Assembly: GCF_057098645.1 (NCBI RefSeq) | Contig: NZ_CM169472.1 | Length of the DNA stretch: 64,000 nt | Reading direction: 5' to 3' (one strand) | Part shown: positions 1-9,745 of the stretch, piece after piece | How positions within the stretch are numbered: position 1 is the first letter of the stretch | Layout of the letters: the number at the start of each line of letters is the position of its first letter | Position numbers and translations under genes: made by a program | Notes under the pieces: generated by a model | The model's input: only the letters and a program-made list of their open reading frames with translations | Told to the model about the DNA's origin: nothing | Database searches by the model: none

Positions 1-78
1 CAGGCGGGCCAGTGACAATGCAGTTGCCGCACCGCCGATCCCGCCTCCCACAATTACTGCGCGTGTCACTTTCGTCAT
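1..78 (-). CDS. mhbM: 3-hydroxybenzoate 6-hydroxylase (FAD monooxygenase), N-terminal 26 codons only; gene runs off window start
   Basis: Reverse-strand ATG at 76-78 preceded by AGGAGAA RBS; translation MTKVTRAVIVGGGIGGAATALSLARL has FAD-binding GxGxxG; position after maleylpyruvate isomerase matches mhbRTDHIM order. Confidence 0.5.
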   Translation of the reverse strand, partial: MTKVTRAVIVGGGIGGAATALSLARL

Positions 79-92
79 TATAGTTCTCCTGG

Positions 93-740
93 TCAGGCTG
101 AAATTTTATCTTGTTGATTTTCTGGCGCTGCGGCAATGAACGCTGGCAGCTGTGTGCAGGCGTCGTACACCGCTTTGCAGCGTGGATACCCGCTCAAATC
201 GCAGTTCATGCGTAGCGCGTTTGCCCACTGCGGGACAAGGCAGCAATCTGCCAGCGTCGGCGTCTCGCCCACACAAAATTGCCCCGACTGGTTCTGGCGC
301 AACAGTTGTTCCACCGCGCTTAACCCTTGCTGGATCCAGTGCGCATACCAACGTTTTTTTTCTTCTTCACTGACGTTCAGTTCTTCGGTCAGGTAGCGCA
401 GCACGCGCAAGTTATTTAATGGATGAATATCACAAGCGATGGCATAGACAATTTCCAGCACCTTGTTGCGGGCCGGTTCTTCCTGCGGCACCAGCGGAAC
501 TTGCGGGTAGTGCCTCTCCAGCCAGTCAATAATCGCCAGCGATTGTCCGAGTGATTGGCCCTCGTCAGTCAGCAGCGTCGGCACCAGCCCGACCGGATTC
601 ATCCGCCGATAGGCCAGTTCATTTTGCTGACCAATACGGATATTCACCCCTTCGGTCTGGTAATTAATGCCTTTCAGCGCCAGCGCAATGCGTACCCGGT
701 ACGACGCTGAACTATTAAAAAAACTGTACAGCTTCATCAT
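93..740 (-). CDS. mhbI: maleylpyruvate isomerase (GST zeta-class)
   Basis: 215 aa ORF; N-terminal SSASYRVRIAL zeta-GST signature; context with gentisate dioxygenase and FAH hydrolase. Confidence 0.75.
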   Translation of the reverse strand: MMKLYSFFNSSASYRVRIALALKGINYQTEGVNIRIGQQNELAYRRMNPVGLVPTLLTDEGQSLGQSLAIIDWLERHYPQVPLVPQEEPARNKVLEIVYAIACDIHPLNNLRVLRYLTEELNVSEEEKKRWYAHWIQQGLSAVEQLLRQNQSGQFCVGETPTLADCCLVPQWANALRMNCDLSGYPRCKAVYDACTQLPAFIAAAPENQQDKISA

Positions 741-745
741 GCACC

Positions 746-1447
746 TCAGACAATCTTCACCGCGATAGGCGTTAAGCCCTCGACGTTGCCTGTGATCACA
801 TCACCTTTCACTACCGGGCCAACCCCTTCCGGCGTACCGGTGAAGATCAGATCGCCCGGTTGCAGCTCAAAGAAGCCTGACAGATAGCTGATGGTTTCAT
901 TCACCGACCAGATGAGATGGCGAATATCGCTGCGCTGATGATCTTCGCCGTTAACCTGTAACCAGATTGGCGCATTATCAATACCGCCGATATCGCGGGC
1001 TTTGTGCAGCGGCGCGATGGGCGCTGAGAGATCAAACGCTTTACCGATTTCCCACGGGCGGCCCATCTGGCGCATTTCCATTTGACGGTCACGCCGAGTC
1101 ATATCAAGACCCGTGGCATAACCCCAGACATATTCATGGGCGTGTTCCAGCGGGATATCGCTGCCTTTTTTACCAATCGCCACTACCAGTTCAATTTCGT
1201 AATGATAGTTATCGGTCTGCGCCGGATATGGCAGCGCCAGCGTTTCGCCAGCGGCGACCGGAATAACGGCATCTGCTGGTTTGCAGAAGAAGAAGGGTGG
1301 TTCACGATCCGGATCAAAGCCCATTTCGCGGGCGTGGGCGGCATAGTTACGCCCGACGCAGTAAACGCGACGCACGGGGAATTGTTTATCACTGCCAACA
1401 ACCGGTACGGTAACGGGCGCTTGTGGTTCGAATACATATTGAGTCAT
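746..1447 (-). CDS. mhbH: fumarylpyruvate hydrolase (fumarylacetoacetate hydrolase family)
   Basis: 233 aa ORF with FAH-family features ([14 protein letters not shown], metal-binding E/D cluster); 5-bp spacing to neighbours implies operon. Confidence 0.75.
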
Positions 1448-1462
1448 TTTCTCTCTCCCAAA

Positions 1463-2491
1463 TTAATAACGCGCTTCGCGGAAAAGCCCCAGGGCTTCTT
1501 GTACCGGTCTGTCCGAAAAACTGAATAAAACGGTATCTTGCGTAGTCTGGAATGACACGCCGTGCCAGGTCGGCACCACAAAGATATCTTTTGCACTAAA
1601 GGTGAAGATTTCATTGCCGATGGTGACTTGTCCGCTACCTTCCACTACATGGTAGATAGTGCTGTCAGTGGTGCGCGCCACGCGGGAGGAGAACCCTTTC
1701 GGTAGCAGTTGCAGGAAAGCGCCCATCGACGGCATCGGATAGCCGCCGGTGACCGGGTTGACGTAGCGCATTTTGTAGCCATCCCATTCGTCGGCATCGC
1801 CCATGCGGGTTAAATCGTGCAGCACTTCGCGGCTGCGGTCATAACGATAGTTAAAGATCGGCGAGGAGTTCCCCGTCTGATGGCGCAGCGGCAACATATT
1901 GGCAGCGTAACGCGGCAGGTAATCGCCCTCTTTACGCGTTACCGGTTGTTGATCTTCCGGGTAATCTTCGGCAAAACCGCAGCCCAGAGTGTTCACTAAT
2001 GGCAGATCCAACCCATCGAGCCAGATAACCGGTTCGTCGCCAGGGTTGCCGTGATCGTGCCAGCGCCACTGCGGGGTCAGGATAAAATCGCCCTCATTCA
2101 TTGGCGTGCGTTCGCCGTCAACGGCGGTAAATGCCCCTTTGCCTTCAACAATAAAACGCAGCGCCGACTGGTTATGACGATGACTCGGTGCCACTTCGCC
2201 CGGCATGATCAGTTGCAAACCGGCATATAAAGTCGCGGTGATGGAAGACTGCCCTCGCAGCGCCGGGTTTTCCAGTACCAGCACGCGGCGCACCGCCTCT
2301 TTCGCGCCAATCAGGCTGCCGCTCTCCAGCAGCAGCGGGCGGATCTCCTGATAATTCCAGTACGCTGGCGCACAGTTAGCGTTGGGCGTTTTCGGCACCA
2401 GATGGTGCAGTGACTCCCACAGCGGGGTCAGGTTTTGCCCGGAAATATGCTGATAAAATTGTTCACGGCTATTTTGATTGTTATCAGTCAT
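1463..2491 (-). CDS. mhbD: gentisate 1,2-dioxygenase (bicupin)
   Basis: 342 aa ORF; cupin His motifs ([15 protein letters not shown]); flanked by FAH hydrolase and MFS transporter. Confidence 0.8.
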
Positions 2492-2502
2492 TGGGATGCT
2501 CC

Positions 2503-3861
2503 TTATTCGTTCACAACACCTGCGTGAGGCAGTGAGTCAGGGATAGAGGTCGACTGGCGAACCACGGTGATCAACAGGGTTAACATCACCGCACTGATCG
2601 CCGCAGGCACAGCGATAATGAAAAACAGGGTGTCGAAAGAGAAATTCATCGCCATCATCACGCCGCCAGACAGCGAGCCAACAATCGCGCCGCAGCGGCC
2701 CACGGCGTTTGACCAGCTCACGCCCGTGGCGCGACTTTGTGTTGGATAAAGTGTTGCGGTCAGCGCATTCAGCCCCACCTGCGATCCGCTGATGCCAATG
2801 CCGGTGCCGAAAATCGCCAGCGCCATCAGCCATAATCCATCCTGGCTTAAGCCAATCATCACGATGCATATAGCGCCTGTGGCATAGCTCAGCGCCAGTA
2901 CGCGGAAAGGATTGAACTTATCCATCAGCACGCCCAGCGCCAGCGCGCCCAACGTACCGCCAATCTGGAACGCGGCGGTAACCCAGGAGGCATGTTGCAG
3001 GTCGATGCCGCGATGGTTGAGCAGCGTTGGCATCCAGCTTGAGAGCAGGTAAATAATCAGCAAGCTCATAAAGAACACCACCCACAGCATCAACGTGATG
3101 GGTAACTGACGCCCCATAAACAGTTGACGAATGCTGCCTTTTGTAACGGAGGCTGATTCAATGAGATAAAACTGGGTATCGACATAACGCTCGCGGGTGA
3201 TGGCGCTGACGGTTTTCGCAATCACCGCCTGGGGTAGCTGGCGGCGCACTTGCCAGCGTGGCGATTCCGGCAGAACCACCAGCAGTGCAACAAACAGCAT
3301 CAGCGGTAATACGCCACCCAACACCAGGATCCCGTGCCAGCCAATCACCGGCACCAGCTGCGCGCTGACAATCCCGCCAACCGCCGAACCCAGGGTAAAG
3401 CCGCAAAACATCAGCGTCACCAGCGCGCCGCGGCGGCGGGCAGGCAGATATTCCGAGGTCATGGTGATGGTGTTCGGCATCGCGCCGCCCAGACCCAAGC
3501 CGGTGAGAAAGCGCAGGAAGACCAGAGTTTGCAGATCCGGAGAGAAAGCTGAGGCGAGGCTTAACGCGCCAAACAAAAAGACGCACAGCTCAATCACCCG
3601 CTTGCGACCAAAGCGATCGGACAACGGGCCACAAAGCAGTGCGCCTGCGGTTAACCCCAGCAGACCCGCGCCAAAAAGCGGGGCGAGATCGCCTGCGGTG
3701 AGTTGCCAGTGAGTGCGAATATCAGGGGCGATAAATCCGATAGCCGCGGTGTCAAAACCATCGAGCATTACCACCAGAAAACAGCAGATGATAACGCGCC
3801 ACTGCATCTTGCCGACCGGAGCAGCATCGATAAGTGCTTGTAGATCACGTCGTTGAGTCAT
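2503..3861 (-). CDS. mhbT: MFS aromatic acid (3-hydroxybenzoate/gentisate) transporter
   Basis: 452 aa, multiple TM segments, MFS motif [12 protein letters not shown]; first gene of minus-strand catabolic operon. Confidence 0.75.
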
Positions 3862-3987
3862 AGTAAATGCCTCAGTGCAGGTAAGGTAGATGTTTCTTTT
3901 GTTTTGTATATGTTGCGATATTGTGATTAAAGAGATGAAATGTACAATGGCATTTCGGGCAGAGAGATAACCTGGAGGTTATGGTAA
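3862..3987. promoter_or_regulatory. divergent mhbR / mhbT control region with candidate LysR-type operator (ATTGTGA-N14-TGTACAAT, approx 3920-3950)
   Basis: 126-bp AT-rich spacer between divergently transcribed LysR gene and operon; imperfect inverted repeat of T-N11-A type seen by eye. Confidence 0.35.
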
Positions 3988-4896
3988 ATGGCGAACTGGG
4001 CGCAAAAATTAAAACTACATCACCTTGAAATGCTGGTGGCGTTGGGTGAACAGGGCAATCTGACCCATGTCGCACGAATGATGAATATCACCCAACCTGC
4101 GCTTTCGAAATGGTTGTCACAACTCGAAGATGAGATTGGAATCACACTTTTTGAGCGGCACAGCAAAGGATTACGTCCGACTGAAGGCGGCAAATTGTTA
4201 TTGCAACATGCCCAACGGTTAATCAATGACATGGAGCGATCGCAACATGAACTGGCCCGTTTTAAACAAGGTGGACTGGTCGGCAGTCTGAAAATTGGCT
4301 GTTCTCCCGTCGCCACTGACTGCGTATCCCAGGCGATTTTGCATTTGCTTACGAAGATGCCAACTCTACACCTGAATATCGAAGAGAAGGTGATGACCCC
4401 ATTGCTGCAAGATCTGTTGGCAGGTTCTGTCGACGTGGTCGTTGGGCGAATTGGCGGTCGCGCCTTGCAACTGCCACTGAATTATCAGGTGCTGTACACC
4501 GAGCCAGTATGCTTTGTCGCCAGCCCTGAGCACCCACTGGCGAAATACGCCACCCTCAGTTGGAATGATCTTGCCAACTGGCGCTGGATCGTCTGGCCGA
4601 CGGGTACCCCCATTCGCATTAGTATTGATAATGCGCTGGTAGACCACGGCGTAATGCTGCCAGAAAACACGATTGAGTCGGCGTCGATGAACGTCAGTAC
4701 CAACCTGTTACAAAGCAGCGATATGATCTCTATTTTGTCATTACGCCTGGCGCAACGTTATGCCAGCCAGGGACAACTGGTGATACTCAACCTGCCAAAG
4801 ATAGAACAGAAAGGCAGCGTCGGTGTGTTCTGGCGCAATAACGAAACGCCTTCTTATGCTTTAAGTCAGTTTCTGCACTTTTTACAGCAGAATTAG
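3988..4896 (+). CDS. mhbR: LysR-family transcriptional regulator of the gentisate operon
   Basis: 302 aa; N-terminal HTH (LTHVARMMNITQPALSKWLSQLE) typical of LysR; divergent from catabolic operon. Confidence 0.8.
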   Translation: MANWAQKLKLHHLEMLVALGEQGNLTHVARMMNITQPALSKWLSQLEDEIGITLFERHSKGLRPTEGGKLLLQHAQRLINDMERSQHELARFKQGGLVGSLKIGCSPVATDCVSQAILHLLTKMPTLHLNIEEKVMTPLLQDLLAGSVDVVVGRIGGRALQLPLNYQVLYTEPVCFVASPEHPLAKYATLSWNDLANWRWIVWPTGTPIRISIDNALVDHGVMLPENTIESASMNVSTNLLQSSDMISILSLRLAQRYASQGQLVILNLPKIEQKGSVGVFWRNNETPSYALSQFLHFLQQN

Positions 4897-5149
4897 TGTG
4901 CTGAACTGGGCATTCGCACGATGTTACTTCCCTGTAATTCAACGATGCGTAATTTTTCGGGGAATCGTGCACTGTGATAAGGCGTGATCTTTCATGGGGT
5001 GAAAATCCCACCAGGTGACTGTCGTTCCAGCCGGTAGCAGTCAAAGCAGTCGTGTGGGTAACAAAGCGGCTGATGTATTTGATGAAGAAGCTGTAGGTGT
5101 TTCAGTGAGTATACAGGTCATAATGTGAGTGAATCTGAGCAGGCCTCGA

Positions 5150-5930
5150 AAGAACCAATTGGAAGGACAACCCATTAGGAATTCCCAGAAAACAAGACAG
5201 GCATAGTGAGATGTGATCTAATTGATTGTGCTAGCAATTTCAAGGATATCACCACTATGCCTGCACGTTCATTATGCCAAAAATTCCTTAAAAACATACT
5301 GGCCACTTTGCATTTCTACCATCAAAAATCACTGATTGACGCAACAAATGCTGTAATAAATGGCGCTTCCCTCACGCTTAGCAGCATCGGGCGTCATTTA
5401 ACCAGACAGCATTAGTTAAAAACAAGATAAAGCGGGTGGATTGACCGTTGGGGAATTCTCAACTGAAAAATGATCTTCCCACCATTTTTCAGTTGGTTAC
5501 TCAAAAAAATACGCTGAGAATGTTCGTGTTGTTGTACGCCTTCGCCAGCAGTGGCAGGATGTTCAGGAGGAGTGTCGGCAGGCAGAGGTCGGATCAGGAG
5601 AGCGGCTGCGTAATGCCCTGCTGAATGTGGATTATACCACCAGTTTTGAACTGCCTTTTCGTCTGCTTTTAACCCGCACGTCACAGCTGATTGCTGTGCT
5701 TTGGGAAGAATGGGATATCAGCCAGAAAAATGTGGTGTTTAACGATAAACGCTTTGGTTGCGTGTATAGCCTGAAGGCCAGTCTTTCCGGCGTGCGGATA
5801 CATTCCGGTATCATCTGTCTCACCGTATTCGCCGGATGGTTGGGAATGAAATACATCATCGCCTTGGCAGCAGATTGCCCGGAAAGTGAAAGCGCTCCGT
5901 GAATGACTTAAGTATGCGCTAGAGGAGGGA
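5150..5930 (+). mobile_element. degenerate IS4-family (IS10-like) transposase remnant, frameshifted and 3'-truncated
   Basis: Short ORFs 5206-5415 and 5627-5902 carry IS10-like N-terminal motifs (ASLTLSSIGRHL cf. IS10 TLTLTELGRNL; IAVLWEEWDISQK cf. IVLVDWSDIREQK); boundaries approximate. Confidence 0.4.
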
Positions 5931-6082
5931 TTACTGGTGACCGCACTGGACGGTCTGTTCTGGTCTGGTAGTCAGCGTATTGCGGAAGATATTCTGTGTC
6001 GTTACGGGGAAGTCATCTTCACAGGGATCTTCAGTCAGTTAGTATTACCGACATTCATTCACCAACTTACCGGAGATAATCG

Positions 6083-6412
6083 ATGTCAAAACCCCGATGG
6101 ACCATTGAACAGAAAAGGCAGCACGTTGCTGCCTGGCGCGCCAGTGGTCTTACACGTCAGCAATACTGTGAACTCAACGATATTCCCTTCACATCACTTC
6201 GCGAATGGCCGCAGGATGTCGCAAAAGCTGAACGCCGGGCAAATGAACCGACCGTTCTTCCCGTTCATATTGCGCCACCACTGCATGCTGATGTACCACA
6301 GCCCGTCACGAATGAGCCAGTCACGCTCTTCCTTCCCGGCGGAGTACGGATGTGCTGTCAGCCGTCACAACTTACCGATGTCTTCAGGGCGCTCAAATAT
6401 GCTCAGTCCTGA
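6083..6412 (+). CDS. IS66-family accessory protein TnpA (orf1)
   Basis: 109 aa, HTH-like (WTIEQKRQHVAAWRASGLTRQQYCELNDI); stop overlaps tnpB start. Confidence 0.65.
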   Translation: MSKPRWTIEQKRQHVAAWRASGLTRQQYCELNDIPFTSLREWPQDVAKAERRANEPTVLPVHIAPPLHADVPQPVTNEPVTLFLPGGVRMCCQPSQLTDVFRALKYAQS

Positions 6413-6791
6413 TAATGTCTTCATCGCGATTAAACCTGTTGACATGCGCCGGGGCATCGACACACTGACGCAGTATATACAGGATGAACTCCGGTCGACA
6501 TGGCATGAGGGAGCCGCCTTCGTCTTTGTTAACAAAGACCGTTCGCGTATCAAAGTTCTCCGGTGGGATAAACACGGGGTGTGGTTGTGTACCCGCCGTC
6601 TTCACAAAGGCAGCTTCCGCTGGCCACGTGCAAATGATGCTGCCTGGCACCTCACTCCCGACGAGTTTAACTGGCTGATTGCCGGTGTTGACTGGCAGCA
6701 GGTTAAGGGACATGGCCTGACGAAATGGGTCTGGCAAAATGAACCTGAACTGCGCCCTGAAAACACGCAAAACACACTGCTAACTCACTGA
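6399..6791 (+). CDS. IS66-family TnpB (orf2)
   Basis: In-frame ATG at 6399 within track ORF 5937-6791; sequence MLSPDNVFIAIKPVDMRRGIDTL... resembles IS66 orf2. Confidence 0.6.
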   Translation: MLSPDNVFIAIKPVDMRRGIDTLTQYIQDELRSTWHEGAAFVFVNKDRSRIKVLRWDKHGVWLCTRRLHKGSFRWPRANDAAWHLTPDEFNWLIAGVDWQQVKGHGLTKWVWQNEPELRPENTQNTLLTH

Positions 6792-6797
6792 AAAATA

Positions 6798-7845
6798 ATG
6801 AATATTCGTATCCGGAGTGGTATGCTCCCCTGTATGGATATCTCCGCTCTCAACACCACGAATGACATCGAAAAACTGCGTGCTATGGCACTTGCCATGG
6901 TACAAAAAGTCATGTCGGAGAATGCCGAAAAAGAGCGGGAATTACTGGAGAAAAGCCGGCGCATCCAGCTTCTGGAAGAAATGCTGAAACTGGTTCGTCA
7001 ACAGCGCTTCGGTAAAAAATGTGAAACGCTGGCTGGTATGCAACGCTCCCTGTTCGAAGAGGATGTTGATGTCGATATCGCCGAGCTCACCGCACATCTG
7101 GATAAACTGCTCCCGCAATCCCCTGAAGAAGACGAAAAAGCGTCCCGTTCACGCCCGATACGCAAACCCTTACCGGCTCATCTTCCACGGGTGGAAAAAA
7201 TTATCCAGCCGGACACTGACCATTGCCCTGAATGTGACGAGCCGCTGCACTATATCCGTGATGCGGTGAGTGAAAAGCTGGAGTATATTCCCGCTCACTT
7301 TGTGGTGAACTGTTATGTCCGTCCGCAATACAGTTGTCCCTGTTGCCAGAAGGTGTTCAGCGGTGAAATGCCGGCACATATCCTCCCGAAAAGTGCCGTT
7401 GAGCCATCAGTCATCGCACAGGTGATCATCAATAAATACGGTGAGCACCTGCCTCTGTATCGCCAGCAACAGGTCTTTGCCCGTTCAGATGTCGGACTGC
7501 CCGTCAGTTCGATGGCTGACATGGTTGGCGCGGCAGGGGCCGCATTATCCCCCCTCGCGGCGTTACTCCATCGCGAATTGATAAGCCGTCCGGTGGTGCA
7601 TGCAGATGAGACTACCCTGAAGATCCTGAACACGAAGAAAGGCGGTAAATCCTGCTCCGGTTATCTGTGGGCATACGTCAGTGGAGAAAGGACGGGACCG
7701 TCAGTTGTGTGCTTCGACTGCCGGACCGGACGTAGCCATGAGTATCCTGAAAACTGGCTTCAGGGCTGGGGCGGGACGCTGGTTGTCGACGGACATAAAG
7801 CTTACCGGACTCTGGCAAACAAAGTGCCGGAGCTGGCGAATATCA
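6798..7845 (+). pseudogene. IS66-family transposase TnpC, C-terminally truncated (about 350 of about 520 aa)
   Basis: Coiled-coil N-term, zinc finger CPECDE...CPCCQ, DDE motifs; homology ends after LVVDGHKAYRTLANKVPEL where a Gly/Ala-rich PT-VENN-like sequence begins. Confidence 0.6.
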
Positions 7846-8441
7846 TCGGTCATCACGCGGGTATTGATGACAATACAGCGGCAAAAGCCATTGCCCATGC
7901 CATTCTCGGTGGTGTGACAGCAGCCCTTCAGGGCAACAGTGCGGCAGCAGGCGCAATTGGTGCGGGTACTGGTGAAGTGATCTCGTCAGCCATTGCGAAA
8001 AGCCTCTACCCGGACGTAGATCCGTCGAAACTGACAGAAGATCAGAAGCAAACCGTAAGCACGCTGGCAACGCTGTCAGCGGGTATGGCTGGCGGCATTG
8101 CCAGTGGCGATGTGGCTGGCACAGCTGCAGGGGCTGGTGTTGGGAAGAACATTGCTGAGAATAACTTGGTTGGTGGCACAGAGTCCGAGCAGAGCAAAGC
8201 TGCTCAGACGCATGGCGCAGATGTACTTTCCTGTAACGATGCTCCAGGCGGTGAAGCCTGTAAGCGAGGAGAAGCAGTCAATAAAGCGTATGCCGGAGCG
8301 TTGGCCACTGGTAGTGTAGCTCTCTTACCTGGCGGTGCTCAGGCCATGTGGGCTCTTGGCACAGGTGCAAATGCAGGAATTGGTTACATGGTAGATAGTT
8401 CAGTTGATCCTGAAAATGCAATCATTGCAGGATGGGTCTGA
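7846..8441 (+). pseudogene. orphan CdiA-CT-like toxin fragment: pretoxin PT-VENN-like region (AENN) plus about 90 aa of CT N-terminal region, cut by IS629
   Basis: KLTEDQKQTVSTLATLSAGMAGGIASGDVAGTAAGAGVGKNIAENN resembles CdiA pretoxin region ending in VENN-type motif; two Cys after motif; reading frame ends at TGA that is first triplet of IS629 IR. Confidence 0.5.
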
Positions 8442-8480
8442 ACCGCCCCGGGTTTCCTGGAGAGTGTTTTATCTGTGAAC

Positions 8481-9371
8481 TCAGGCTGCCAGATCATCGT
8501 TTCCGATGGAAGCATAATAAGCTTTTTCTGCTTCTGCCGGAGGAGTATGGCCCAGCCTTTCCAGCAATCGTCGATTGTTATACCAGTCCACCCACGTGAG
8601 TGTGGCCAGTTCCACTTCTGCACGGTTTTTCCAGCTCTTACGGTGTATTACCTCCGCTTTGTAAAGACCATTGATGCTCTCCGCCATCGCGTTGTCATAC
8701 GAGTCGCCTGTACTTCCTGTTGATGCCAGTAATCCGGCTTCCTTAAGCCGCTGTGTGTAGGCCAGCGATACATACTGAGAACCTTTATCACTGTGATGGA
8801 CCGTGCCGGACGGTCGACGGGCCCATAACGCCTGCTCCAGTGCATCCAGCACGAATGTCGTCTCCATGGACGATGAGACCCGCCACCCCACAATGTATCC
8901 GGCAAACACATCAATGATGAACGCCACATAGACGAAGCCCTGCCATGTGCTGACGTAAGTAAAATCAGCCACCCACAGCTGGTCAGGTCGTTCTGCCACG
9001 AACTGACGGTTTACGCGGTCGCCTGCGGCAACGGCTTTCCGGCTGATGGTCGTACGGACCTTTTTACCCCGGAGAACACCGGCAAGTCCCATAACCGCCA
9101 TGAGACGTGCCACAGTGCATCTGGCCACTCTGATACCTTCCCGTAACAACTGACGCCAGACTTTACGCACACCGTATACCTTGTGATTTTCATCGTATAC
9201 GCGCTGTATCTCTTTCTTCAGCCAGTCATCGCGCTGCGCACGGGCACTGCGTTTATCCGGATGATGTCGCTGTTGCTGACAGTGGTAATACGTTGACGGG
9301 GCAATATGCAGTTCGCTGCATAGCGGTCCGACCCCGTACTGCTCACGCAGCTTATCCAGCAGTGGCATCAT
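8481..9371 (-). CDS. IS629 transposase OrfB (DDE integrase domain)
   Basis: 296 aa with DDE motifs ([25 protein letters not shown]); start overlaps orfA stop; expressed as OrfAB by -1 frameshift. Confidence 0.85.
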
Positions 9372-9694
9372 TTTTTCCAGAGGCGGTCGAACTCCGCCTT
9401 CGCAAAATAAGCGGAAGCCTGGCGAAGGATATCGTTACTGCGGCGCAGTTCACGATTTTCACGCTCCAGCTCTTTCAGACGCTGACGTTCAGCGGTGGTG
9501 AGCCCTCCATCACCGCCCCCGGTATCCCGCTCATGCTGGCGAACCCAGACACGCAGAGTCTCCGGCGTACAGCCAATCTTTGGAGCAATGGAACAAATTG
9601 TCGCCCATTGTGAGTCATATTCGCCCTGACTTTCCAGAACCATACGGACTGCCCGTTGACGGACTTCAGGGGAAAAACGAGTATTTTTAGTCAT
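9368..9694 (-). CDS. IS629 OrfA (HTH / leucine zipper)
   Basis: 108 aa [19 protein letters not shown]...; A6 slippery run (minus-strand GGAAAAAATGATG, approx 9366-9380) at orfA/orfB overlap. Confidence 0.85.
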
Positions 9695-9745
9695 CCTGTT
9701 TACCTCTTTCTCAGGAAGTTTAGTCTCCAGGATTCCCGGGGCGGT

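Follow-up and report, generated by a model that had tools for sequence, protein, structure and literature searches.

The region 4967–9748 of the E. coli chromosome analysed here consists of broken mobile elements lying side by side and adjoining gentisate-degradation genes (coordinates refer to the window, the whole stretch of 64,000 nucleotides that was analysed). The host setting is a chromosomal island that also houses a copy of the gentisate (mhb/gtd) cluster and the tail of an orphan array of contact-dependent inhibition (CDI). The last position of the shared gentisate cluster is ~4948 and the remnants start at 4967, in agreement with the initial annotation, which had placed insertion sequence (IS) remnants at the border of this cluster. 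All the components were identified with strong statistics and their breakpoints were mapped against intact references (ISEc60, L006 and L017; ISEc49, L003 and L018; the ECs1377 gene, L013; cdiA, L010 and L011; the intron, L022). Element names are taken from the PGAP annotation of the matching records. The identity to intact relatives climbs from left to right, with 88% for ISEc60, 98% for ISEc49 and 99.6–99.8% for IS629; for the intron, no intact relative is found among 5,426 complete E. coli genomes.

The first piece (4967–5170, + strand) is the 5′-terminal ~204 nt of a group II intron, comprising domain I and starting with GUGCA. The Rfam model RF02003 (group-II-D1D4-4) matches positions 4993–5128 over its full length with 69.9 bits (cut-off 49, E 4e-15), so that the conserved 5′ domain I structure is present. 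From its GTGC start, the remnant aligns with the 5′-terminal part of an intact intron from a metagenome, which belongs to the same Rfam family and possesses a D5/D6 match and a reverse transcriptase (RT)/maturase ORF. Within 4800–10300, a search for the catalytic domains V/VI and the RT ORF gave no Intron_gpII match and no RT ORF. Compared with bacterial group II introns of the RF02003 class, the remnant shares the GUGCA 5′ end, domain I and the spacing of an intact RT/maturase intron, but only ~10% of a roughly 2-kb intron is left. A 24-mer scan of GTDB representatives for relatives returned solely a contig that is binned as Collinsella but resembles E. coli. A degenerate metagenome scan yielded two distant introns, which fixed the 5′ end of the remnant and are not close relatives. 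The remnant occurs in 91 complete genomes; in those of them that were listed, no annotation covers the matching sequence. The remnant overlaps the start (5150) of the interval considered in the initial annotation, where it is not mentioned.

The intron sequence is followed by a 362-bp 5′ fragment of an ISEc60-like element (IS4 family, IS10 group; 5171–5532, + strand). An IS4-family N-terminal transposase fragment with internal stops had been proposed, and this description is confirmed. The transposase ATG is located at 5257 and ~92 of 396 codons are left, interrupted by two in-frame stops and two frameshifts. The fragment is 88% identical to the intact ISEc60 of pEA15_1 over 364 nt (E 7e-132), and its first 84 codons share 77% amino acid identity with the ISEc60 transposase; PGAP annotates it as an ISEc60-family pseudogene. 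The left inverted repeat, at 5171–5190, is degenerate and differs by three substitutions from its intact counterpart (CCCATTAGGAATTCCCAG versus CCCTGAGGAATCCCCAG). The right inverted repeat is absent, the ISEc60 homology stopping at 5532, and no Pfam or NCBIfam DDE transposase domain was recovered from the pieces. The resemblance to ISEc60 extends over 362 bp from the left end and takes in the terminal repeat region, whereas only ~28% of the roughly 1.3-kb element remains, with a disrupted reading frame and no right end. Its divergence is also far above that among active copies, as intact ISEc60 copies are 98.9% identical to one another. Judged from its sequence, the fragment is a remnant and not a transposition-capable member. 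The earlier label ‘IS10-like’ holds in a loose, distant sense: the ISEc60 transposase is ~36% identical in amino acids to those of IS10A and ISVsa5 and matches the same NCBIfam IS4 model, and the ISEc60 ends are of the CTGAGG type. However, the closest named element is ISEc60.

After 4–5 nt of unassignable filler and in the absence of microhomology, the ISEc60 fragment gives way to ~460 bp of an ECs1377-family gene (putative wHTH DNA-binding protein; 5537–5995, + strand), a feature that the initial annotation does not contain. The NCBIfam profile NF052300 (E 2e-23) is matched at its positions 37–92 and 141–160 in two different frames, which identifies a frameshifted pseudogene. It is 85–87% identical to intact genes at the nucleotide level and lacks approximately the first 63 nt and the last 99 nt of the 624-nt gene. 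Since its homology runs up to the left end of the IS66-family element at 5996, the target of this element was an ECs1377-like gene, and the insertion point lies 464 bp beyond the end of the IS4 fragment. The IS66-family element had been said to follow the IS4 fragment directly; the intervening pseudogene contradicts this.

The next piece (5996–7832, + strand) corresponds to the left-hand 1837 bp, or 66%, of an ISEc49-like member of the IS66 family with a full length of roughly 2765 bp. The left inverted repeat (IRL), GTGTCGTTACGGGGAAGTCAT, starts at 5996 and is intact. Profile matches recover the three expected ORFs in the usual order, as had been claimed: tnpA (6083–6412, + strand; NCBIfam IS66 TnpA, E 1.8e-13, 50.8 bits for a cut-off of 28), tnpB (6399–6791, + strand; TnpB_IS66, E 4e-35; IS66_TnpB, 115 bits for a cut-off of 50) and codons 1–332 of tnpC (6834–7829/7832, + strand; DDE_Tnp_IS66, E 1.7e-39; transpos_IS66, 228.6 bits for a cut-off of 180). 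The DDE_Tnp_IS66 match is limited to profile positions 2–143 of 284, the domain being cut at 143; a complete TnpC is absent, as the fusion described below occurs after residue 332 of about 521. The proposed loss of the 3′ end was also correct, because homology to complete ISEc49 copies stops at 7832. The end coordinate given earlier, 7845, is 13 bp off this point. Complete copies (L003 and L018) measure 2764–2766 bp, are 98% identical to the remnant and, in L003, are flanked by the 8-bp target-site duplication CAGTAAAC. The present locus has neither the right inverted repeat (IRR; GTAAGCTTCCGGGGAACTCAT in the complete copies) nor an 8-bp target duplication. The element resembles ISEc49 in its complete IRL, tnpA and tnpB, with a TnpA accession identical to that of full copies, but the last ~930 bp, comprising the C-terminal 189 tnpC codons and the IRR, are gone and tnpC reads into cdiA.

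At this junction, ISEc49 and cdiA share the 7-bp microhomology GCCGGAG (7826–7832, + strand), as seen by comparing the window with ISEc49 and with the cdiA of UTI89 or the orphan module of strain A36. Beyond it lies an orphan cdiA-CT fragment (7833–8438, + strand) which comprises a DUF637 tail, a PT-VENN domain (Pfam, E 1.5e-12) and the first 95 of 224 toxin-region residues. The cdiA-homologous sequence thus carries a VENN-type pre-toxin motif, here AENN at 8154–8165, followed by a variable CT. It is 97% identical to the orphan module of A36 and 96% identical to the UTI89 cdiA gene near codon 2928 of 3262, the latter similarity being lost beyond the motif. The tnpC frame continues into this sequence to form a chimeric ORF, TnpC(1–332)::CdiA′, of 535 aa (6834–8441, + strand), whose TGA stop is supplied by the IS629 terminus; exactly this protein (WP_445900714.1) is recorded on four draft contigs. 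Its uninterrupted form measures 664 aa (WP_000354992.1) and is intact on at least 350 contigs; 2015C-3163 and ML35 are examples of strains that carry it. This continuation of the tnpC frame does not appear in the initial annotation. An IS66 tnpC C-terminal fragment located after cdiI in UTI89 was considered as the reciprocal product of the tnpC/cdiA event and rejected, as it has no DNA similarity to ISEc49.

Orphan cdiA-CT genes disrupted by insertion sequences are a known feature (Poole et al. 2011, PMC3150448). As in E. coli orphan cdiA-CT/cdiI arrays of the EC869 type, the locus contains a cdiA fragment, some conserved upstream sequence, AENN and a variable CT, and in relatives a 72-aa hydrophobic, immunity-like ORF and then the cdiI-o11 module follow the cdiA-CT. 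Unlike these arrays, the orphan has gained a start codon through fusion with a transposase gene and, in the window, has been cut by IS629 and parted from its immunity gene: a cognate cdiI directly downstream is absent from the window, as IS629 cuts at 8438. Its position upstream of o11 and the hydrophobic immunity ORF are the only indications that the cdiA-CT corresponds to EC869 o10, a PMF-dissipating toxin (PMC7858069). The CT after AENN has a size of 22.6 kDa, at odds with the 29.5 kDa given for o10 toxin carrying a FLAG tag, so that this label stays tentative. Toxin-domain typing of the 224-aa CT returned no Pfam, NCBIfam or PDB match.

The last mobile element is an intact IS629-like member of the IS3 family (8439–9748, − strand) of 1310 bp, the length reported for IS629 (PMC3064760). 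Its frameshift pseudoknot is recognized by the Rfam model ALIL at 9297–9413 (120 bits). The flanking triplets, GTC and ATC, differ and hence do not form a target duplication. On the right, a 3′-truncated winged-helix regulator gene (9749–10156, − strand) leads into the glc operon. In reference genomes, the glc region is more than 1 Mb away from the gentisate/CDI locus, and the sequence right of IS629 is collinear over 50 kb with a region that lies far away in O145:H28. The full-length 1310-bp element, the non-matching flanks and the joining of two distant regions are shared with the IS629-mediated rearrangements of EHEC (PMC3064760). Here, by contrast, the window does not include the reciprocal junction, so that inversion and other rearrangements are indistinguishable.

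The join between the CDI remnant and glc might alternatively be an assembly artefact, namely a chimeric contig produced by repeat collapse. IS629 is a multi-copy repeat and a common assembly breaker, and neither of the two IS629 junctions of the window occurs in any of the 5,426 complete E. coli genomes. We consider this explanation unlikely. Since the 535-aa protein with its IS629-supplied stop was recorded from four independent contigs, the left junction is real. In addition, IS629-mediated recombination is documented in EHEC (PMC3064760), and the orientation of the flanks relative to strain Z1323HEC0422 agrees with a simple inversion between two copies of the IS.

Taken together, the interval 5150–7845 is, with a probability of about 0.9, a non-functional mosaic left by one-sided losses after successive arrivals of mobile elements in the gentisate/CDI island. 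Its anatomy and its junction sequences are read directly from the DNA. The remnants are unable to transpose, since one end is missing from each and their transposases are truncated. Neither the rest of the CT, cdiI, o11 and the ISEc49 right end, nor other IS629 copies were found when these missing halves were sought across the 64-kb window. The order of events proposed below is drawn from divergence and geometry alone, the most diverged pieces being taken as the oldest, and the mechanisms are likewise suggested by the sequence. A group II intron would first have settled just past the end of the gentisate cluster and been interrupted at nt ~204 by the ISEc60-like element. A deletion may then have removed the rest of this IS and joined the remainder to codon ~21 of the ECs1377-family gene, into which the ISEc49-like element would subsequently have transposed, its left repeat staying intact at 5996. 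Next, a deletion mediated by the GCCGGAG microhomology probably took the right third of the IS66-family element together with any sequence between it and the orphan cdiA-CT; the outcome would by chance have been in frame, giving the TnpC::CdiA-CT ORF. Finally, and only in this genome, the IS629-like element would have inserted into the toxin-coding part and, through recombination with a further copy, linked the locus to the glc region. Intermediate states, such as a complete ISEc49 lodged in an otherwise intact ECs1377 gene at the locus, were not recovered in any genome.

It can be argued that the uninterrupted TnpC::CdiA-CT is a working arrangement, in which the IS66 promoter and start codon drive an otherwise silent orphan toxin/immunity module together with the cdiI genes located downstream; the payoff would be immunity to the CDI toxins of neighbours or an addiction module which stabilizes the island. 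The fusion is in frame, the 664-aa ORF is intact on the contigs mentioned above, and so are the upstream tnpA and tnpB. However, chance alone gives an in-frame fusion one time in three. The tnpA, tnpB and chimeric frames are all open, which could be counted as a hint of retained function against the mosaic reading; the copies, at least 99% identical, are too similar for a selection test. A sigma-70-like site is located at 6018–6045 in the IS end and no strong terminator is seen on the + strand before 8438, but the counts of the promoter scan are no higher than in shuffled sequence and the same applies to terminators. Orphan cdiA-CTs normally lack translation initiation signals and orphan cdiI genes can be expressed (PMC3150448), and the hydrophobic ORF and cdiI-o11 lie downstream in the relatives. 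Against this, different lineages repeatedly lose the ORF to IS insertions, which argues against selection, and a CdiA-CT devoid of secretion and delivery domains is unable to reach other cells. In the window itself, only 95 of the 224 toxin-region residues are left and the immunity genes have been separated from the fragment. We therefore regard a working chimera as highly improbable. Also highly improbable is the specific proposal that, in the uninterrupted strains, an accidental fusion domesticated the promoter and the start codon of an IS66 element so that a normally silent orphan toxin/immunity cassette is expressed; if true, the host would hold standing immunity to o10-/o11-type CDI toxins or a toxin-immunity addiction module stabilizing its island, and the database name ‘IS66 family transposase’ would stand for a functional hybrid ORF.

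The nested insertion originally suggested, in which the IS66-family element entered and thereby truncated the IS10-like one, fits the proximity and common orientation of the two remnants but is scarcely credible, given that ISEc60 homology ends at 5532, that the 460 bp before the IS66 repeat at 5996 belong to an ECs1377-family gene interrupted by this repeat, and that the intact ISEc60 copies (L006, L017) contain no ECs1377-like sequence. The one junction which resembles an insertion within an element is that of ISEc60 inside the group II intron, and ‘nested’ is not supported for the two IS remnants.

In biological terms, the mosaic carries little weight. It is ordinary mobile-DNA decay with genes already annotated, and a typical decay zone at the edge of an E. 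coli accessory gene cluster. Its practical value concerns annotation: databases list the widespread WP_000354992.1 and its shortened versions as ‘IS66 family transposase’, yet the last third is CdiA pre-toxin/toxin sequence. The junction sequences also record a microhomology-mediated deletion and an IS629-driven rearrangement. The junctions 5170/5171, 5532/5537, 5995/5996, 7826–7832 and 8438/8439 provide clean lineage markers for the island.

The locus is present in about 90–100 of the 5,426 complete E. coli genomes; its left part is found in about 91–101 and the intact tnpC::cdiA junction region in 22. The same junctions recur at 100% identity across many genomes, which suggests single ancestral events. 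The region had been called a recombination hotspot, and the comparison bears this out, as five other genomes differ in secondary IS insertions or breakpoints within the same 3.5 kb. Variants in other genomes include IS629 at 7758–7760, IS421 at 7541–7551 together with ISEc23 at 7860–7867, IS629 at 7794 followed by efa1, and an IS630 fragment at 8202, after which come nleE/nleB; in the window, IS629 is located at 8439.

The interval between the gentisate genes and the glc region is best read as the outcome of sequential insertion and one-sided deletion. We infer the order and the mechanisms of the events that connect the observed junctions as follows. A group II intron would have been in place first and would have received an ISEc60 copy; a deletion would then have joined ISEc60 to an ECs1377-like gene, which would in turn have been the target of ISEc49. 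Subsequently, a microhomology deletion would have reached the CDI orphan array and, lastly, IS629 would have inserted and then recombined. This order is supported by the divergence from intact relatives: the intron has none in E. coli, and identity is 88% for ISEc60, 98% for ISEc49 and 99.6-99.8% for IS629. The remnants are immobile: of each, the left end alone survives, and every transposase or RT is either cut short or missing. The locus is ordinary and, except for the intron remnant, was already annotated by PGAP. The initial annotation of the region was largely right, but missed the intron remnant, an ECs1377 pseudogene and the read-through of tnpC into cdiA; its reading of nested elements, with the IS10-like fragment truncated by IS66, is incorrect in detail.

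Window 1-8438 is 99.99% identical to the locus of 2015C-3163, ML35, O103:H2, O145:H28 and like strains. It carries the 3-hydroxybenzoate/gentisate genes: a monooxygenase gene, maiA, a FAH-family hydrolase gene, gtdA, mhbT and a LysR regulator gene (3988-4896). This cluster occurs in two contexts, namely in an IS/CDI-rich island of the window type upstream of the fec operon, and beside the core gene yohJ in O157:H7 and many others (~97% identity). When window 1500-4948 is compared with O157:H7 Xuzhou21, homology between both contexts ends exactly at 4948, which therefore is the right edge of the shared cluster. The following 18 bp (4949-4966, GTAATTTTTCGGGGAATC) match nothing identified and might represent a leftover of the exon that originally lay 5′ of the intron. 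The locus is also found in a MAG contig binned as 'Collinsella sp.' (JAIJJM010000061.1), which lacks window 348-1735; its 98.7% identity to the E. coli locus makes contamination of the bin probable.

The intron remnant (4967-5170) lies upstream of the IS4 fragment. The Rfam model RF02003 (group-II-D1D4-4) is covered entirely at 4993-5128 with 69.9 bits (E 4e-15; Rfam cut-off 49 bits), and no annotated feature underlies this match among the matches listed. A degenerate pattern scan of metagenomes provided two comparator introns that belong to this Rfam family; one of the two (L022) is complete, with a D5/D6 match and a 441-aa RT/maturase ORF. Alignment with the comparators places the 5′ end at GTGCA (4967), and the 30-nt spacing from there to the GGGTGAAAATCCC motif is equal in the window and the aligned intron. 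The intron sequence runs to the ISEc60 end at 5170, thus about 204 nt are left of a roughly 2-kb intron. This segment is carried by 91 of the 5,426 complete E. coli genomes, in which no other relative, intact ones included, was found.

An IS4-family N-terminal fragment with internal stops had been proposed in this region, and this identification holds. The ORF list and three-frame translation show that the reading frame from the ATG at 5257 is broken. Positions 5171-5532 share 88% identity over 364 nt (E 7e-132) with the intact ISEc60 of the E. albertii plasmid pEA15_1, relative to which the window shows two gaps of 1 nt along with CAG→TAG and CGA→TGA changes. Comparison of two independent intact copies defines the ISEc60 left end as CCCTGAGGAATCCCCAG; its counterpart in the window is CCCATTAGGAATTCCCAG at 5171. 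The transposase of ISEc60 has 396 aa, falls under NCBIfam transpos_IS4_2 and shares ~36% identity with those of IS10A and ISVsa5, so that the earlier label 'IS10-like' is tolerable loosely and fails in a strict sense.

The IS66 element was thought to follow this fragment directly and to truncate it. Instead, an ECs1377-family pseudogene (5537-5995) separates the two. NCBIfam NF052300 matches it in two frames (profile positions 37-92 and 141-160), and DNA identity to intact 624-bp family genes is 85-87%. Such genes are present in ~1,680 genomes, typically in pathogenicity-island-like settings. The left repeat of the IS66 element directly adjoins the ECs1377 homology, which indicates insertion into the ECs1377-like gene, 464 bp from the end of the IS4 fragment. 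The ISEc60/ECs1377 joint (5532/5537) is bridged by filler of 4-5 nt and shows no microhomology.

The description of a three-ORF IS66 element without its 3′ end proved accurate. TnpA, TnpB and TnpC all score above NCBIfam cut-offs, and Pfam detects LZ_Tnp_IS66 and zf-IS66 and matches DDE_Tnp_IS66 over its first half (positions 2-143 of the 284-position profile). Complete ISEc49 copies at two unrelated sites (L003 and L018) measure 2764-2766 bp, with IRL GTG(C/T)CGTTACGGGGAAGTCAT, IRR GTAAGCTTCCGGGGAACTCAT and an 8-bp target duplication (CAGTAAAC in L003). Identity of the window to these copies is 98% and is confined to 5996-7832; hence the left 1837 bp are kept and the 3′ end is lost.

Past this truncation the tnpC frame stays open and continues in frame into cdiA sequence from 7833, giving a TnpC(1-332)::CdiA chimera. 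ISEc49 homology ends at 7832 and cdiA homology starts at 7823-7826; the 7 bp common to both (GCCGGAG, 7826-7832) would mark a microhomology-mediated deletion. The cdiA part comprises a DUF637 tail and a PT-VENN domain (AENN at 8154-8165), and shares 96% identity with the cdiA of UTI89, in the vicinity of codon 2928 of its 3262, and 97% with the orphan module of strain A36. In relatives the uninterrupted chimera has 664 aa (WP_000354992.1, at least 350 contigs), and downstream of it come a hydrophobic ORF of 72 aa, a fragment of cdiA-CT-o11 and cdiI-o11. The position and properties of the fused module make it a candidate for the o10 type of EC869; o10 is a toxin that dissipates the PMF, and its immunity protein contains two TM helices (PMC7858069). 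The CT has no match in Pfam, NCBIfam or PDB. The window form has 535 aa (WP_445900714.1, the exact protein on 4 draft contigs), its stop being supplied by the terminal TGA of the IS629-like element. Both proteins bear the RefSeq name 'IS66 family transposase' (window 6834-8441; 7935-9929 in L002, a relative with the uninterrupted form), which misleads for the C-terminal third, a CdiA pre-toxin/toxin region. The only non-trivial possibility is that, in strains whose chimera is uninterrupted, the IS66 promoter drives expression of the orphan module through it; this is unsupported, since a promoter scan stayed at chance level and the ORF is disrupted repeatedly in different lineages.

Orphan cdiA-CTs broken by IS elements have been described (PMC3150448). 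In UTI89, another IS66-family tnpC C-terminal fragment lies directly 3′ of cdiI, after the cdiBAI locus (L010, 2983-3303). It is unrelated to ISEc49 at the DNA level, so IS66 elements struck CDI loci more than once. As a description, the term recombination hotspot is apt, given that other genomes record different events in the same 3.5 kb: IS629 at 7758-7760; IS421 at 7541-7551 with ISEc23 at 7860-7867; IS629 at 7794, then efa1/lifA; and an IS630 fragment at 8202, then nleE/nleB. This variety fits neutral DNA tolerant of insertions, with IS copies seeding rearrangements.

On the right, an intact IS3-family element of 1310 bp (8439-9748, minus strand) is bounded by TGAACCGCCCCGGG ends and contains an ALIL frameshift pseudoknot (120 bits); in length and context it is consistent with IS629 (PMC3064760). 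The triplets flanking it differ (GTC and ATC). Beyond it, 9749-59522 is collinear (99.96%) with the wHTH-glcABGFEDC…ygiQ region of O145:H28 RM12761, where that region lies >1 Mb away from the gentisate/CDI locus. Neither IS629 junction occurs in the 5,426 complete genomes. Recombination between two IS629 copies most likely produced the join, probably as an IS-mediated inversion, and the geometry fits one relative to strain Z1323HEC0422; no reciprocal junction of this putative inversion was seen. Alternatively, the right junction may be a misassembly. The winged-helix regulator gene at 9746-10156 (minus strand) has its 3′ end truncated by IS629, with the pilus side outside the window; in O145:H28 this gene measures 606 bp and adjoins a Flp/Tad pilus cluster.
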